Shown: piece by piece, positions 1,914-57,687 of the stretch | Position numbering within the stretch: position 1 is the stretch's first letter | Layout of the letters: each line of letters starts with the position of its first letter | Virus record (IMG/VR): IMGVR_UViG_3300050029_000088 | Location: 1-63,489 of that record | Source: a virus | Taxonomy: Duplodnaviria > Caudoviricetes | DNA: 63,489 nt | Strand: one strand, 5' to 3' | Program-made: the position numbers and the translations under genes | The notes under the pieces: generated by a model | Told to the model about the DNA's origin: nothing | Database searches by the model: none | What the model saw: the letters and a program-made list of their open reading frames with translations, nothing else

Positions 1914-2626
1914 GCGGGGATGTCCTTGTGCTTGAGCTTGAACATGACCCGATCCCCTCGGTACGTGAACAGGTACGGATCGGTGCGGGCGACGACTCCC
2001 TCCATCTCGATGCCGTCGATGTCGCCTTCCTCGAAGGCCACCGTCGAGAGCTTCCACGAGGGCAGGGTTGCCTCGATGTACGCCGTCGTCTCGTTCTGCG
2101 CGAGCACGGGAACCGTCCTGACGCCGAGCACGGAGGCGACTACCTCCACGTCCGCCCACGTCCGCCAGAGCCGGTGCCCGAGACGGCGTTCACCGTCCTC
2201 CTCGATGATCCGGCACGTCGCCACGTCGAAGACCCGGAAGGACTTGTGCGGTGCGTACGCCCCGCCGCCCTTCTGGATTCCCGGCCCGTAGCCCTCGCCA
2301 TAGACGATCATCGCGAGCGAGCCGGGCTCGGCCTCGGGCTCGATGGACAAGAGCGCCATCGCCATATGCACGGCCCCGATATGCGGCACGGCCTCATCCG
2401 AGAAGTTCTTGGGCAGCGTGGCGGCGTCCGACCGACCGCGAGCCTCATAGAGCGGGCCGCAGCATCCCCAGTCGAGGATGAGCCGGATGTTGGTGCCGTC
2501 GATCTTCTCCAAGACGAGCCACGAGTTGACCTGCTCGAAGGCAGGGTTGCTCCTTGTGCCGGGCAGGCAGTGCTTCTTGTCCTCCTCGTTACGCACGAGG
2601 AGGTTGTATATCTTCGGGAACTCCAT
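1910..2626 (-). CDS. RNA ligase (Rnl2-like nucleotidyltransferase)
   Basis: Motif I EKIDGTN, plus YGEGYG, FRVFDV, EGVV and FKLK motifs; no OB domain. Confidence 0.8.
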   Translation of the reverse strand: MEFPKIYNLLVRNEEDKKHCLPGTRSNPAFEQVNSWLVLEKIDGTNIRLILDWGCCGPLYEARGRSDAATLPKNFSDEAVPHIGAVHMAMALLSIEPEAEPGSLAMIVYGEGYGPGIQKGGGAYAPHKSFRVFDVATCRIIEEDGERRLGHRLWRTWADVEVVASVLGVRTVPVLAQNETTAYIEATLPSWKLSTVAFEEGDIDGIEMEGVVARTDPYLFTYRGDRVMFKLKHKDIPA

Positions 2627-33178: not shown

Positions 33179-34213
33179 ATGAACGATGACATCGCCGGGC
33201 AGACGCCCGAGGAGGACGAGCTTCTCAAGGCAGCCGAGGAGCTTGGGATCGACCTGAGCCCGAAGGACGGCAACCTCGACGGCAACGGAGACGACCTCGG
33301 GCCGACGGGGGCTGCCGGGCCAGCAGGATCATTCGGCGCACCGGGGCCGAGCGGCAACATCGGCGCACCGGGTACTCCGGGGCCGACAGGGCCGACGAGC
33401 GCAGCCGACAATCTCGGAGCGCATCTCCTCGGTCGCGTGCCGTCCACGCCGGATGCTCGTGACTTCAAGATCGAGATGCTCCTGTCGACCGACCCGGCCG
33501 ACGTGATCCTCTCCAAGCTGCTTGCGTCGAAGTCCGTGGCGCAGGCGACGAAGGACTGGGCGGCGTTCTGGACTCCTGCCCTCAAGACCATCGGGGGCAA
33601 GCCGATTCCGCCGCCGACGCCCTCGGGGAGCAAGCTGTGGGCCGACGCCGAGGTCGTGCTCGATCAGGGGCAGACCCCGCACTGCGGCGGCTTCGGGGGC
33701 TGCCAGTTCGGGAACACCGATCCGGTGGACGACAAGTACGGCAACCCGGACGGCGAGAAGCTCTACTACGAAGCGAAGGTCATCGACGGCGAGCCCAATC
33801 AGGAGAACGGCACGTCCGTTCGCTCGGTCGTGCAGGCGCTCGTCAACCGAGGCCGAGTCGGAACGTACGCCTTCTCGACCAACATCGAGACGCTCAAGAA
33901 GTTCGTTCTTACGAACGGCCCGATCATGGTCGGCTCGGATTGGCTCGACGGCATGTTCACTCCCGACGCCAACGGGTACGTTGTGCCGACCGGCAACGTC
34001 GCGGGTGGGCACTTCTACTTGCTCCGGGGATTCCTCCCCGCGATCCCGAGCCCGCAGGGCGTGCCCTTCGTCGTGAAGGAGGACACGTTCGCCTTCCTCA
34101 ACTCGTGGGGGCCGAACTGGGCCGCGAGCGGCTACTTCTACATGACCGTCAAGGACTTCGCCTCGGTCTTCGCCAACGGCGGCGAAGCGTGCGCGGCGGT
34201 CGAGCTTCCGTAG
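33179..34213 (+). CDS. papain-like (C1) cysteine peptidase with short collagen segment
   Basis: LDQGQTPHCGGF, GGHFY, FLNSWG catalytic motifs; AAGGAGG SD. Confidence 0.85.
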   Translation: MNDDIAGQTPEEDELLKAAEELGIDLSPKDGNLDGNGDDLGPTGAAGPAGSFGAPGPSGNIGAPGTPGPTGPTSAADNLGAHLLGRVPSTPDARDFKIEMLLSTDPADVILSKLLASKSVAQATKDWAAFWTPALKTIGGKPIPPPTPSGSKLWADAEVVLDQGQTPHCGGFGGCQFGNTDPVDDKYGNPDGEKLYYEAKVIDGEPNQENGTSVRSVVQALVNRGRVGTYAFSTNIETLKKFVLTNGPIMVGSDWLDGMFTPDANGYVVPTGNVAGGHFYLLRGFLPAIPSPQGVPFVVKEDTFAFLNSWGPNWAASGYFYMTVKDFASVFANGGEACAAVELP

Positions 34214-34240
34214 CCTCAACTGACAACACGCAAGGCAAAT

Positions 34241-34270
34241 GAAAGAGCCCCGCCGCAGCGGGGCTCTTTC
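34241..34270. terminator. terminator between convergent units
   Basis: GAAAGAGCCCCGC/GCGGGGCTCTTTC 13-bp stem. Confidence 0.8.
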
Positions 34271-34345
34271 TGTTGCCTCTGAGTGTTCGGTACTGTCCCT
34301 TGTTGACTCTAGGCCGGAATACCTCCTTTGTCTCGGGGTCACAAG

Positions 34346-34425
34346 TGGAGACGGGCGGACTCGAACCGCCGTCCGGCGCAGTCCCGCGTGCGGGCTTTCT
34401 GGCCGTCGATACCTGTCTCGTCCCC
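34346..34425 (-). ncRNA. ssrA: tmRNA-like RNA reduced to its tRNA-like domain
   Basis: GGGGACG/CGTCTCC-A acceptor stem with G3.U70; unpaired D-loop AGACAGGTATCGA; GAC linker; T arm GGCGG-TTCGAGT-CCGCC; own TAGACT-N6 promoter. Confidence 0.85.
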
Positions 34426-34444
34426 GTGGGTAGTCTAGCGCGGG

Positions 34445-36149
34445 CTAGCCGTCCGAGCCGCCGGGACTCCAACCCGGCGCAGACACGCACCTGCCCGCAA
34501 GCACGCGCTGCTCTGTCCGTTGACCCGGACGACCAATCCTCCCGCGCGACCGGCCCGACGAGGCGAGAGCGGCCATCGGCCGTATGCAGCCCCGCTACTG
34601 AGCGGGCGTTCGGTCACGCGGAAACTCCCGAGCGACCGGCCCGTGAGCACTGCCCTTGTGCGGGCTCGCTACTGTGGGCGCTCGGTCGCACGGAAAACGT
34701 GGGTCGCGTCGAGGGGAGGGACGGAGCCTTGAGCGGCTCCGGCAGCCGTTAGTCTGCGAAGGGGGCGCGGCGTGTACCTCAACGATCCGGGCATAGCCCA
34801 GGCAGTCGTTGGCCCAACCCTCCTAGAACACGCCAAGTTCGTCTTCTCGGCGCGACCGTGCTCAAGATGTATCCCCCGGTGGGGCGCTTGGTCGACTGCG
34901 ATCAGGCGTCTTACGTCGAGCCTACCGGGGGACGGGGCGCGGCGCTCACCCCGGCTCGCGGCGACCAACCGCAAGGAGTACCCGAGGGAGCGCCGAACTC
35001 ACCCGCCTCACGGCCACAACCTCTTACGGAGGGGCCGCGTCTACGGCGGGCGAAGAAGAACAGGAGCCCGTAACACTCAGAGAGGGATACGTGATGGCGG
35101 AACCGACTCGGTTGCGGAACGTCTGACGACGCACGCAAGCGGCCAGCACGCCCTTCGGCATGGCCCTTCATGTAGTGCGCAGGGTGGCGGCGAGCTTTCT
35201 CCGGCGTCCCGGTTCGTGACGCTCGCAGGCAGCCTGCTTGGGCTCCTGATTCGGGGACGGCGGAGGGGGCGGCATCGTTCCAACGGCTTGCCCTCTCTTA
35301 CCTCACGACTAGACCGTCCATACAGCCGGGCGTTGAGCTTTCTTCCCCGGCCTAAACTTGGTGGAAGCTCGGCTTGAAGCAGAGCACGTACTCTAAGAAG
35401 CACCGCGACCGAAGTCCGGTTTGTGAGCAGCCGAAGCCGAAGCCCCTTTGCCTGAGTTGCGTGCCCGGCAAGAACGCAGGGGATCGAACCCGCCGAGCGG
35501 ACGGTTTCTGCCCCGCCACCCTGTAGCCCGAAAGTCTCTGCTTCAAGCCGAGATTTTTCGAGACGCTCGATGAAGCGGACGGTCGCGCCGTCGCCGTCGC
35601 CTACCCTCCCCGGATCGTTGCAACTCCCCGGATACTCTCGGCTCAAGCTCGGACGTGTTACCGCTTCACTCGCCTTACCGTTCACTCTCCACGCACCTTC
35701 ATTCAGGGATCGATCGGTTGTCCGCGCGAGCTTCGCGCTCGTTCTCCGAGTCGTGGTCGTTAGCCGTCAGGGTGGTTTCGCAGAGCTACTTGCGACGGTG
35801 CCTCACGAGCGGACGGCACCGTGGCAAAAATCACGGGACATCAAGCGCACCCTGACTGGGAGCCAGAGCACGAATACCGGCGGGGCCGAGAAGCACCGTC
35901 CGCTTGCGAAGGGCGACAAGCCAAACCCGCACACGTCACGCGACGACGGCGCTCGAATGGGAAGTCTCCAATCTCCCCCACGAAGAACCAAGCCGCCGCG
36001 CGGCCCGCGCAAGCGCGAGCACCGTCGGAACGGTCGCTCTCTCCGAGAGAGAGGGAAGAACCGCCCGGAACCCGAGTGTCCGACGCCTGGCGGTGGCGGC
36101 GAGGGGAGGGGAGAGGGAGAGAGGCCCGACTCGACAACCCCTTGCTTGC
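34445..36149 (-). ncRNA. candidate giant structured RNA (~1.7 kb)
   Basis: No credible ORF; boxed GATACT promoter at 36156-36161; perfect 17-, 12- and 11-bp long-range complementarities; cUUCGg loop; tRNA-like 3' module. Confidence 0.65.
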
Positions 36150-36184
36150 ACTCTTAGTATCGACTATTTGACCCCGCTTCGCGT

Positions 36185-36198
36185 CCCCCTTTCGAGGG
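36185..36198 (-). promoter_or_regulatory. CCCTC-N4-G(A/G)GGG box of the large-RNA promoter
   Basis: CCCTCGAAAGGGGG-N23-GATACT on the minus strand. Confidence 0.6.
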
Positions 36199-36213
36199 GT
36201 TCTATGTAAAGTC

Positions 36214-36238
36214 GAAACGGCCCCTTTCAGGGCCGTTC
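36214..36238 (-). terminator. hairpin terminator after the GT2 operon
   Basis: AACGGCCC/GGGCCGTT stem. Confidence 0.55.
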
Positions 36239-36258
36239 CTGGCCTGGCGGAGACACCC

Positions 36259-36408
36259 CTACGCCTGGCGTCTTGGAGCGATCCGGCCGAGTGCGAACCC
36301 CGCGCCGATGAGCGCGAAGGCCGCGAGCACAATCCAGCCGAGCCCCAGCCCGGTGAATGGAAGCGTCCCGACGATGGCAGCCGGGCCGAGCGTGTTCGCG
36401 TGATACAT
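36259..36408 (-). CDS. 49-aa LPxTG sortase-signal peptide
   Basis: MYHANTLGPAAIVGT-LPFTG, then a hydrophobic helix and PRRQA; TGATG coupling to the GT2 gene. Confidence 0.7.
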   Translation of the reverse strand: MYHANTLGPAAIVGTLPFTGLGLGWIVLAAFALIGAGFALGRIAPRRQA

Positions 36409-37445
36409 CACCAATCCTCCCCTCGTCTAAGTAGAGCCCCGGCGTAGGCGTACGCCTGGACGACCTGCAAGAATGAATCGTACAGGAACTCGGGCACGAG
36501 AGCGGCCCCCACGAGCATCATCCTCCACCCGCGCTCGCGCACGGTCACAGCCCGCTCGACCATGAAGATGCCTGAGACTCCGATCCAGAGAGGGTGCAGG
36601 TGCATCCCGACGATGGCCCCGTACACGAGCGAGGCGAAGTAGCCGACGGTCACGAGGATGCCTGCGAGCGCGAGCGCCTGTCGTCCCCAGTACGGTGCGG
36701 TTAGCCGGTTGAGTCCGTACTGACGAAGGTTCTCGAACGCGCCGCGCTTCCATCGGAGCCGCTGCCGGGCGAGGTCGCGCCACGTCGGCATGACCTCGGT
36801 CGTCAGGACGCAGCCCTTCGGGCTCAAGACGTGGTGGCCGAGCGTGCGCAGGGCGAAGGTCATCTCGTTGTCCTCGGTCAAGACCGTCGTGTCGTAGACG
36901 AGCCCGCGAGCGCCCGGCAGCCGCGTCCCGCGCTCGTGTGCGACCTCCTGCAAGGCCGAGACGCAGAAAGCGGTCGCGGTGCCCGTGAGCACGAGGCAGC
37001 GGCCCTTGAGCCGCGCCACGTCGCGGGCGTAGCGGGCGTACTCGTTGCGCTGGCACATGCCGAGGAATCCCGCGCCGGGCTGCCCTCGGAAGTTGCCTCC
37101 GACGGCGGAGTACCCGTGGCCGAGGTAGTCGAGCGCCGTCTTCACGAAGCTCGGCGCGAGGATCGAATCGGCATCGACCACGAGCACGACATCGAATGGC
37201 TCTAGCTGCCCGAGGCCCACGTCGAGCGCCTGATTCAGTGCGCCAGCCTTCTTGTCCCGATTGCCGACCGTGCGGATGAGGCCCACGTCGCCACGAGATA
37301 GCACGATCTGTTCTGTCTCGTCCGTGCAGTTGTCCGAGACAACGAATGTCTCATCCGGCGGGCGTGCCTGAGCCGCGAGGGCGTCGAGGCACGCGCCGAT
37401 CCCGGCTTCTTCGTTGTGCGCCGGGATGAGGGCGACGACCCTCAA
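36408..37445 (-). CDS. membrane-bound processive-type glycosyltransferase family 2
   Basis: LIPAHNE, SDNCTD, KAGALN, VDAD, TED, QRLRW and C-terminal TM helices. Confidence 0.92.
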   Translation of the reverse strand: MRVVALIPAHNEEAGIGACLDALAAQARPPDETFVVSDNCTDETEQIVLSRGDVGLIRTVGNRDKKAGALNQALDVGLGQLEPFDVVLVVDADSILAPSFVKTALDYLGHGYSAVGGNFRGQPGAGFLGMCQRNEYARYARDVARLKGRCLVLTGTATAFCVSALQEVAHERGTRLPGARGLVYDTTVLTEDNEMTFALRTLGHHVLSPKGCVLTTEVMPTWRDLARQRLRWKRGAFENLRQYGLNRLTAPYWGRQALALAGILVTVGYFASLVYGAIVGMHLHPLWIGVSGIFMVERAVTVRERGWRMMLVGAALVPEFLYDSFLQVVQAYAYAGALLRRGEDW

Positions 37446-57111: not shown

Positions 57112-57527
57112 ACACGACCAACGAGATAAGCCCGGCGGAGCTTGCCGCCGACCTGCTCACCCGCTGGGGGCTGCCTCCGGTGCGAGTAGTCGTCGGCCCG
57201 GCGACGGACAAGCTACAGCAGGCGGGCGTCATCTCGTGCATGGCGGCGGGCCTTCCTGTAGTAGAGGAGTACGTGCCGATCCAGTGGGCTCGGGTACAGA
57301 TGCGATGCCTCGCCGGAACGCTCGCGCAAGCGGATAACATCTCGCAGGCCGTCCAACGGGACATTCATGCGAAGGTCAGGAAGTTCGTCTACATGGCGTC
57401 GACCGACTCGTGGTATCTGCTTCATCTCTGCAAGATCACCGCTGGGCCGTCGATGCACTTCGACTCGCCCGAGACGTGGGAGACGCTCGTCTTCGCGGAG
57501 CTAATGCTCTCGAACGAGCGACTCTAG
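57108..57527 (+). CDS. tail terminator protein
   Basis: Position in the block; RVQMRCLA motif. Confidence 0.6.
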   Translation: MNTTNEISPAELAADLLTRWGLPPVRVVVGPATDKLQQAGVISCMAAGLPVVEEYVPIQWARVQMRCLAGTLAQADNISQAVQRDIHAKVRKFVYMASTDSWYLLHLCKITAGPSMHFDSPETWETLVFAELMLSNERL

Positions 57528-57598
57528 CTCCGGGTCAGGGGATCGAACCCTGCCCTCCGCGTCCAGAGCGCGGCGTCCTACCGATAGACCAACCCGGA
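57528..57598 (-). tRNA. tRNA-Gln(CTG)
   Basis: TCCGGGT/ACCCGGA acceptor; CCGCG-CTCTGGA-CGCGG anticodon arm; TTCGA T-loop. Confidence 0.9.
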
Positions 57599-57618
57599 CG
57601 TGCTACAGTCTACTCGAC

Positions 57619-57687
57619 GGTCACGTAGCTCAGATAGGTAGAGCGCCGGGGCACCGGAGGTCGCGGGTTCGAGTCCCGCCGGGGCGT
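57619..57687 (+). ncRNA. tRNA-like gene with collapsed anticodon loop
   Basis: Intact D arm (TAGCTCAG..GGTAGAGC) and T arm (GCGGG-TTCGAGT-CCCGC); anticodon arm is CCGG-GGCA-CCGG; poor local acceptor pairing. Confidence 0.65.

Follow-up and report, generated by a model that had tools for sequence, protein, structure and literature searches.

Which product, if not a protein, is encoded by a 1.7-kb stretch without recognizable genes in an otherwise gene-dense phage genome? The question is raised by positions 34445-36149 of IMGVR_UViG_3300050029_000088, an IMG/VR viral contig of 63,489 bases (G+C 65%; estimated completeness 71%), which was analysed over its whole length and is referred to here as the window. 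A preliminary description, made from the sequence, had proposed for this stretch a single giant structured RNA of a new class or, as a fallback, a polycistronic array of RNAs. The results described below indicate that the stretch is probably an island of non-coding RNA genes, located on the minus strand at the end of a glycosyltransferase operon, and not one giant RNA; the island includes a module of about 285 nucleotides (nt), 35847-35563, which is securely identified as a member of a phage-borne family of structured RNAs without a model in Rfam 15.

The 1.7-kb stretch is truly non-coding. The difference between the maximum and the minimum G+C of the codon phases is 0.00-0.16 across ~34150-36400, compared to 0.3-0.5 in the adjacent genes; moreover, the ten longest open reading frames (ORFs) gave no match in Pfam (0/10) and a single weak match in PHROGs (1/10; E=0.015). 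The collapse of the codon-phase signal, together with these searches, bears out the earlier statement that no ORF has the third-position G+C (GC3) bias of this phage. On the whole, the preliminary description was right on the non-coding nature of the stretch and in the placement of its repeats; however, most of these repeats have a length expected by chance, and the GATACT promoter proposed upstream was not called.

The module 35847-35563 and its relatives

When 34200-36300 was compared by blastn with 50,697 phage records, a sole segment of 55 nt (35750-35804) was matched, in 201 records, 200 from Mycobacterium phages and one from a Mycolicibacterium phage. The matches listed include Bixzunavirus phages such as Dandelion, which we take to be Cluster C mycobacteriophages; in Dandelion, the match is gene-sense and falls within the 360-nt gap that separates genes 70 and 71. 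Many GenBank Cluster C records have a "hypothetical protein" annotated over the 55-nt core, others, including Dandelion, leave the gap empty, and none of the matches listed carries an RNA annotation.

The window (minus strand) and Dandelion have in common the 18-mer CUGACGGCUAACGACCAC, which retrieved 28 stretches from IMG/VR. Alignment of these loci revealed conserved blocks split by hairpins, the sequence of which varies with complementarity being kept, and the profile built from the alignment matches 28/28 stretches, including L024, which is cut by the end of its locus. A second, gapped pattern, with the last bases of the 18-mer left free, retrieved 17 stretches, five of which were new (L107-L111); all five match the profile and contain the motif with a C-to-U variant, bringing to 33 the IMG/VR stretches with homologues of the module. 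The 18-mer is identical in every member fetched by it, the C-to-U variant deriving from the second search. The family consensus is CUGACGGCUAACGAYCAC for the 18-mer and CCCUGAAYGAA (GAYCCCUGAAYGAA in a longer form) for a second motif, the junction. Both motifs are present in the right order in the window, the 18-mer at 35770-35753 and the junction, AUCCCUGAAUGAA, at 35710-35698. The window contains a single copy according to the profile hidden Markov model, at 35842-35554 on the minus strand (E=5e-50; profile positions 10-273), a count that is based on nhmmer sequence profiles, which diverged structural paralogues could escape; the similarity of the window to the family loci is limited to 35810-35584.

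When the module of L019 was used as a query against cultured phages, eight records were obtained, belonging only to Phabba, Myrna, Tonenili and Dandelion; Phabba covers most of the module, and the other three about one third of it. Among 185,579 species genomes, the 18-mer was found in five stretches, and the full module only in L082, a contig from an Acidimicrobiales metagenome-assembled genome that has the same module as L005; L084 has 50 nt of it, and L081, L083 and L085 none, compatible with the chance occurrence of an 18-mer in 596 Gb. Since a single full module is present in this collection, the RNA seems to be carried by phages, and in the scan with the exact 18-mer it was nearly absent from bacterial genomes.

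Searches of Rfam 15 at E up to 10 gave no family for window positions 35530-35880, for L019 or for L002, and 18 loci gave no match at gathering score; likewise, cmscan of 34200-36300, 35530-35880, L019 and L002 at E up to 10 returned no match to GOLLD, ROOL, OLE, raiA, HEARO or other large-RNA models. No description of the family was found by a literature search of titles and abstracts, with subscription journals and supplements beyond its reach, so that a prior description is possible. In the other loci, the module is 223-414 nt long and free-standing, being closed by its own terminal stem; the two shortest lengths are those of L014, with a closing stem of 12 bp, and of L021, whose ends were set by hand. 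No protein cluster occurs in at least three distinct loci within 4 kb of the module, and thus there is no evident partner protein; in addition, the flanks of the family loci contain no second conserved module, except in the related pair L016/L017.

Fold, sense strand and self-complementary loop of the module

The fold was studied in two alignments: A1, with 22 of the 30 extracted sequences (L008, L009, L011, L015, L028, L029 and L032 were dropped as identical or nearly so, and L024 as truncated), and A2, with 15 compact members, from which L012 and the members with long insertions were excluded. RNAalifold on the 22 sequences gave 29 pairs, 22 of which show compensatory changes. The A2 structure consists of 35 pairs in seven helices, and standard pairs occupy 88.8% of its cells, against 63.7% in shuffled alignments and 28.9-40.1% when the partners are slid by 1-3 columns. 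The covariation score is 0.618, compared to 0.184 in the shuffles (0/500 reach the observed value) and to at most 0.111 after sliding; 27 of the 35 pairs are changed on both sides, versus a shuffle mean of 20.1 (again 0/500) and 11-16 for the slid partners. The architecture of the family consists of a terminal stem (P1), a core of helices P2-P5 around the 18-mer and the junction, and a hairpin (P6) with a self-complementary loop. In the window, the helices correspond to the following positions:

35847-35838 with 35572-35563, minus strand: outer part of P1, 10 bp, to which inner pieces are added
35808-35805 with 35661-35664, minus strand: P2, 4/4 standard pairs, two of them G.U
35800-35794 with 35667-35674, minus strand: P3, 7/7 standard pairs
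35777-35771 with 35691-35697, minus strand: P4, 5/7 standard pairs
35753-35745 with 35711-35718, minus strand: P5, 6/7 standard pairs
35631-35628 with 35613-35610, minus strand: P6, 4/4 standard pairs, CCGG...CCGG

P1 is a long stem joining both ends of the module, and its sequence is different in every phage. The complementarity of the two flanks has a median score of 51.5 within a locus versus 23.0 +/- 5.1 (mean and standard deviation) between loci, and 19 of 26 loci exceed the 95th percentile of the between-locus scores (32); the seven loci under this cut-off are long-insertion members, in which the 3' segment used for scoring did not include the stem (49-71 in another scoring), and three short-stem members.

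The sense strand is the minus strand. Of the 21 distinct loci with an upstream ORF, 19 have it in the same orientation as the RNA, a sigma-70-like promoter is present in RNA sense within 90 nt upstream in 4/22 loci compared to 1.3% of random windows, and the G.U pairs of P3 would turn into A-C mismatches on the opposite strand. The preliminary description had also favoured the minus strand, and this choice agrees with the folding of the adjacent region 35360-35560, which reaches -87.2 kcal/mol on the minus strand versus -76.5 kcal/mol on the plus strand.

The loop of P6 contains a palindrome, which differs among the members of the family as follows:

35624-35617, minus strand: GUUGCAAC, in the window and in L107
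GUGCGCAC: 11 members
GUGGCCAC: L006, L010, L026, L031 and L108
GUCCGGAC: L110
GCUGCAGC: L005
GGUGCACC: L111
GGUGCAUC, with G.U: L018, L022 and L109
GACGUC: L013
GUGCAC: L027, and inside a longer palindrome in L030

At least nine distinct palindromes are thus found across the family. A Watson-Crick palindrome of at least 6 nt is present in the 37-nt P6 segment of 21/22 sequences, L012 being unclear, and the mean palindrome length is 7.7 nt versus 4.7 in shuffles (maximum 6.0 in 500). When the palindrome is scored as pairs, 3/4 positions are changed on both sides. The clearest instance comes from L108 (4180-4435) and L110 (576-831), two phages that are ~98% identical around the module: the modules differ at 7/256 positions, and four of the seven differences are a GGCC to CCGG replacement at the centre of the loop, by which self-complementarity is kept. 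Adjacent bases within one hairpin loop cannot pair with each other; therefore, a palindrome that changes and yet persists is a sign that one copy of the RNA pairs with another; judging from this pattern, the RNA probably dimerises through a symmetric kissing loop or oligomerises. The same reasoning, i.e. palindrome switching as a mark of kissing loops, was put forward for OLE L9.3 and GOLLD L21a, whose contacts were seen by cryo-EM (Kretsch et al., bioRxiv 10.1101/2024.12.08.627333).

In the mechanism that we propose, the module RNA would be a stable, trans-acting molecule, which would form homodimers or larger assemblies by symmetric loop-loop kissing, as shown for OLE and GOLLD, and the changing palindrome would determine which RNA molecules can pair.

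The remainder of the island and the competing explanations

Outside the module, about 1.3 kb of the island is occupied by the following elements, and a tRNA-like domain, related to transfer-messenger RNA (tmRNA), lies just downstream:

35860-36150, minus strand: upstream non-coding stretch with a C/U-rich tract at 36130-36092, without coding signal or Rfam match
35365-35555, minus strand: ~190-nt element closed by a 17-bp perfect stem (20 nt at 95%), containing GGUUCGAUCC and a GAC-UUCG-GUC hairpin
34702-35364, minus strand: lineage-specific non-coding DNA with local hairpins, e.g. 12-nt arms at 34872-34883/34921-34932, and ORFs without family
34539-34701, minus strand: two tandem hairpin units of ~75-86 nt, with direct repeats D1 and D3 at spacings of 74 and 86 nt
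34455-34488, minus strand: candidate partial copy of a tRNA-like 3' half, CUGCGCCGG followed by a CCGGG-UUGGAGU-CCCGG arm; repeat D6, 34373-34387 versus 34474-34488
34343-34425, minus strand: tRNA-like domain of tmRNA without mRNA-like domain, 83 nt, with G3.U70, A73 and no encoded CCA

The 35365-35555 element has a predicted fold with a minimum free energy of -87.2 kcal/mol (z=-2.9) on the minus strand versus -76.5 kcal/mol on the plus strand. The T-loop-like GGUUCGAUCC and the GAC-UUCG-GUC hairpin had already been pointed out, and they are located at 35490-35481 and at 35416-35407, respectively, on the minus strand. The 34455-34488 segment may be a partial duplicate of the tRNA-like 3' half, to judge from its sequence and its repeat.

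For 36150-35860 and 35555-34430, searches of the phage collection, the family loci and their flanks, 48 glycosyltransferase loci and 21 stretches with a tmRNA-head pattern gave no homologue. Close relatives were instead provided by sequencing runs. In a soil run (X4), most of the stretch is covered at ~80-95% identity: 34873-34972 is kept with five changes, 35053-35359 with 23 changes and 19 gaps, the module (35559-35807) with 11 changes and 23 gaps, and 35955-36111 with 20 changes and seven gaps. Other parts, namely 34268-34344, 34621-34700 (skipped by one contig) and ~35454-35558, are replaced or missing, and 34973-35052 and 36112-36190 are substituted by 135 and 66 other letters, respectively; one X4 contig has three changes in one arm of the 17-bp stem, at its loose end 35359. 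In a freshwater run (X6), 34439 is directly followed by 34702 in a 151-nt contig; the 262 nt left out comprise the two tandem hairpin units (34701-34539) and the partial tRNA-like copy (34488-34455). No inference was drawn from the parts of the stretch without cover in X6 and in a further run, X3. Blocks of ~80-260 nt are thus gained, lost and replaced, as expected for modules and not for one rigid 1.7-kb fold. A 19-nt direct repeat, D4 (36092-36110 and 34702-34720; CCCUCCCCUCG.CGC.ACC on the minus strand, 17/19 identical), brackets 1.39 kb of the island; the X6 joint falls exactly at its border, 34702, and one X4 joint at 34701. D4 may be a site of recombination or processing. The 190-nt element, the hairpin repeats, the partial tRNA-like arm and the tRNA-like domain would be separate, fast-evolving RNA modules or remnants of them, perhaps co-transcribed with the module and then processed.

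The 34343-34425 domain reaches 57.7 bits with the Rfam tmRNA model (RF00023; gathering score 47), with both ends of the model aligned; the match comprises the acceptor stem, T arm and D-loop analogue. Its two halves are separated by 24 nt, compared to 316 in the model, and it contains no resume codon, tag frame or pseudoknots. A TAGACT sequence, resembling a -10 element, ends 7 nt before its first G. On the basis of these features, the domain could be chargeable with alanine yet unable to tag proteins, and a decoy function towards SmpB or RNase R is conceivable; the binding of tmRNA fragments by an anti-CRISPR protein, described in PMC11662646, is a loose lead for the tRNA-like domain only. 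A longer ARAGORN call, 34345-34740 (396 nt), with an atypical tag ending in TPAQ and a 6/7 acceptor stem, finds no support in the Rfam alignment. A search for further coding-less tmRNA heads with a gapped pattern retrieved 21 stretches, all of which proved to be ordinary tRNA-like or unrelated sequences.

Same-strand tRNA-like neighbours are found downstream of the module in the window and in L005, L020, L021 and L025. In L025, ARAGORN calls a full-length phage tmRNA (284-609, minus strand), which follows the module at a distance of 400 nt on the same strand; its 5' end (GGGGCCGACCUGGCUUCGACGG), T arm and 3' end are typical, and it stays under the Rfam tmRNA gathering score. In L021 a tRNA-like gene comes right after the module, and L005 and L020 have T-arm sequences downstream of it. 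In L020, positions 2500-2545 (plus strand, ~220 nt downstream of the module) contain a 7-bp acceptor-like stem and a perfect UCGGG-UUCGAUU-CCCGA T arm, with no anticodon arm; this element looks like a minihelix, and ARAGORN made no call on it.

As for the genomic setting, the contig has an actinophage-like gene content, with collagen-like-repeat tail-fibre proteins and a primase; its glycosyltransferase is 57% identical to those of Microbacterium phages, and its peptidase domain resembles those found in Arthrobacter, Gordonia and Streptomyces phages. A search of sequencing runs found the stretch in peat metagenomes. The gap between the genes is ~2 kb (34214-36258), being delimited by a plus-strand tail/peptidase gene that stops at 34213 and by the terminal 51-aa ORF of the minus-strand operon (36259-36414). 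The order of a glycosyltransferase followed by a membrane protein of ~50 aa is also found in Microbacterium phages, and no comparable gap is present in those with the nearest glycosyltransferase (57% identity). The peptidase and the glycosyltransferase, used as IMG/VR queries, found no relative, and none of 48 JGI metagenome loci fetched with the glycosyltransferase (0/48) has any part of the RNA region. No match to TROVE (Ro), SmpB or RtcB genes was found within the 63-kb contig, which is an estimated 71% complete. Elsewhere in the contig, 57527-57687 contains a back-to-back pair of Rfam tRNAs, 57528-57598 (minus strand) and 57619-57687 (plus strand; 40.4 bits), of which ARAGORN calls just 57528-57598, as tRNA-Gln.

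The reading of the stretch as an island of RNA genes has several points against it. In the window copy, P4 has just 5/7 standard pairs, and P1 is interrupted by an extra hairpin, with a score of 36, which is above the 95th percentile of 32 and below the family median of 51.5; a constrained fold of this copy gave no clean P1. The scan called no promoter-like site next to the window copy, the transcription of which may thus start further upstream or be due to read-through, and no RNA run is listed among the sequencing runs with the sequence, so that the transcript, its ends and its processing are putative. The association with tRNA-like neighbours concerns just 5/22 distinct loci, and none in the flanks of Cluster C mycobacteriophages that were examined; self-association is deduced from the pattern of the loop sequences. 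Finally, the ~1.3 kb outside the module has ordinary folding z-scores and no alignable homologue, so that functional RNA is not distinguished there from spacer or decaying duplicates.

This last point leads to the alternative that survives best, although it is on balance unlikely, according to which function is confined to the tRNA-like domain and the ~285-nt module, and the other ~1.3 kb is spacer at a junction of convergent transcription, made of decaying duplications and leftover DNA. The lack of homologues beyond near relatives, the tandem repeats and the partial copy of the tRNA-like arm, the indel polymorphism exactly at repeat borders and the ordinary z-scores are all in keeping with it. 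However, 1.3 kb of useless DNA is rarely kept in phage genomes, the 17-bp stem that closes the 190-nt element is far beyond chance, and in X4 the 34873-34972 segment has five changes in 100 nt, i.e. it is better preserved than the flanking end of the tail gene (34 changes in 175 nt).

A role of the module in cis, either as a leader or regulator of the downstream gene or as a DNA site (origin, packaging site or protein operator at the palindrome), appears improbable. A small ORF starts 12-60 nt after the module in many loci, and a palindrome could be the site of a dimeric protein; however, no protein cluster recurs in at least three distinct loci within 4 kb, no credible gene follows the module in the window, and a terminal stem of 25-35 bp joining the ends is typical of stable RNAs. 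Furthermore, G.U pairs and compensatory changes favour RNA pairing over recognition of DNA, and the palindrome changes sequence with its symmetry kept, which would destroy a fixed protein site.

The proposal that the stretch is one structured RNA of ~1.7 kb, belonging to a new class and stabilized by a pseudoknot and long-range helices, has a still smaller chance of being correct. All the inverted repeats on which it was built were found where they had been placed: a 17-bp perfect complement at 35368-35384/35536-35552 (20 nt at 95%, 35365-35384/35536-35555), a 12-bp repeat at 34780-34791/35609-35620 and an 11-bp repeat at 35180-35190/35513-35523, besides shorter ones. As a control, 200 dinucleotide shuffles of the 1705 nt and six coding stretches of the same phage were used. 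The longest perfect inverted repeat was 9-13 nt in the shuffles, being at least 12 nt in 41/200 and at least 11 nt in 116/200, and 10-12 nt in the coding stretches; thus, only the 17-mer is beyond chance (shuffle maximum 13, coding maximum 12). Its helix is real, and it closes its own ~190-nt element (35555-35365), right after the module. The 12-bp helix, spanning 830 nt, is of chance length and would sequester half of the loop palindrome together with the 3' strand of P6, thereby competing with a conserved hairpin; the 11-bp arm of the supposed pseudoknot is also within chance, and the 9-bp complement 35766/35848 would consume part of the 18-mer and of the P4 strand.

In favour of a giant RNA, no part of the stretch is coding, a hairpin and a terminator delimit it, most of it is kept in one relative, and five perfect inverted repeats of at least 11 nt are present versus 0.85 expected from the shuffles; however, the number of repeats of this kind is 0-4 in coding stretches of this phage. 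Local folding is ordinary as well, with z-scores of sliding 150-nt windows from -2.7 to +2.4 inside the region; the strongest values (-5 to -7, both strands) correspond to the terminator at 34241-34270, and a weaker z of -2.7 to hairpins near 36200. Homology and covariation span just ~285 nt (35847-35563), the homologous module is self-contained elsewhere, at 223-414 nt, and blocks of ~80-260 nt are deleted or replaced in relatives; the idea of a single new RNA is therefore not upheld, and the fallback of a polycistronic array turned out to be the closest to the evidence, and its best fit.

The signals at the borders of the stretch are the following:

34241-34270, both strands: bidirectional intrinsic terminator, 13-bp stem and T tail, common to the tail/peptidase gene (plus strand) and the RNA island (minus strand)
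36216-36237, minus strand: hairpin read from the sequence, 8-bp stem and hexaloop, just after the 51-aa ORF 36259-36414
36156-36161, minus strand: GATACT hexamer, lost in the X4 relative, where 66 other letters replace 36112-36190

The hairpin 36237-36216, previously described as a terminator, does exist and is a possible terminator of the glycosyltransferase operon, but its T tail is weak and the terminator scan made no call. Similarly, the GATACT hexamer is present at 36161-36156, but the consensus scan found no minus-strand promoter there and no acceptable -35; upstream of L027, a member of the family, the same hexamer forms the -10 of a TTGACT-17-GATACT site. The only sigma-70-like site in a scan of 34100-36500 is on the plus strand (36131-36160, TCGACA-18-TAGTAT), overlapping GATACT and directed into the hairpins at 36186-36237 and into the small ORF, to which it is antisense. 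The preliminary description had recognized no intron or RNase P core, in agreement with the cmscan of 34200-36300, which gave no match to such Rfam models at E up to 10; the sole match of this region, at gathering score and at E up to 10, is the 83-nt tRNA-like domain of tmRNA, and all the rest is unmatched.

Lastly, a protein gene hidden in the stretch by an unusual code or frame, or by the great novelty of its product, is close to refuted: ORFs of 195-202 aa are present on both strands, but with a G+C of 65% long ORFs can be expected to arise spuriously, GC3 periodicity is absent, Pfam (0/10) and PHROGs (1/10, weak, E=0.015) offer no candidate, and the 202-aa ORF coincides with the covariation-supported RNA.

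Known RNA systems and significance

The Rfam library includes models of ROOL and GOLLD, and the module is closest in kind to these RNAs, without being a member of either, or of any other Rfam family tested. Like them, it is phage-encoded, several hundred nt long and multi-helix, it has no partner protein gene and it shows kissing-loop signatures; ROOL and GOLLD are often found near tRNA genes, the module family sometimes. Unlike them, the module is of smaller size, 223-414 nt, and is closed by a long terminal stem; it gave no match in Rfam 15 at E up to 10, and it comes from high-G+C actinophages and from soil and peat viral contigs. Furthermore, its oligomerisation is predicted, whereas in ROOL and GOLLD kissing loops hold the molecules together, with a covarying palindromic loop in GOLLD (bioRxiv 10.1101/2024.12.08.627333). 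A parallel is also offered by the symmetric kissing loop of OLE, in which a tetranucleotide alternates among palindromes such as GGCC, GAUC and AGCU (same preprint). This switching resembles that of GCGC, GGCC, CCGG and UGCA in the module; however, the two RNAs are not homologous and differ in host range and context. OLE belongs to bacteria, namely extremophilic Firmicutes, and has protein partners.

The 34343-34425 domain is similar to tmRNA in having both ends of the model and the alanine identity pair G3.U70, but it lacks the mRNA-like domain, and it is a neighbour of the finding and not part of the 1.7-kb stretch itself. The 35365-35555 element presumably resembles bacterial Y RNAs (YrlA), with which it would share a long closing stem and the T-loop-like GGUUCGAUCC; unlike them, it has no Rfam match at E up to 10, its T stem would have three pairs, and the contig, an estimated 71% complete, gave no TROVE match.

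The main result is an uncatalogued, covariation-supported family of phage RNAs with a self-complementary loop; the family occurs in at least 201 sequenced records of mycobacteriophages growing on Mycobacterium smegmatis mc2 155, which gives direct experimental access to it, and a palindrome that varies with self-complementarity kept provides a clean, testable prediction of RNA-RNA self-recognition. The locus also indicates that an extended non-coding gap rich in complements can consist of several distinct RNA genes, grouped in an island, and not of one giant RNA. As to its role, our best guess is that the module interferes with host translation or RNA quality control, or supports them.

ROOL and GOLLD have recently been shown to form RNA-only cages, and to our knowledge further classes of large structured phage RNA are few. 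It is conceivable, though short of an even chance, that the module represents a new class of self-assembling actinophage RNA, a counterpart of ROOL and GOLLD, with the palindrome as a code of self-recognition and the island as a toolkit for translation or ribosome rescue. If this is true, the toolkit would comprise the module RNA, a tRNA-like element closed by a stem and a tmRNA head that accepts alanine but has no tag template, and the switch from GGCC to CCGG between near-identical phages would make the RNA of each phage pair with its own kind only.

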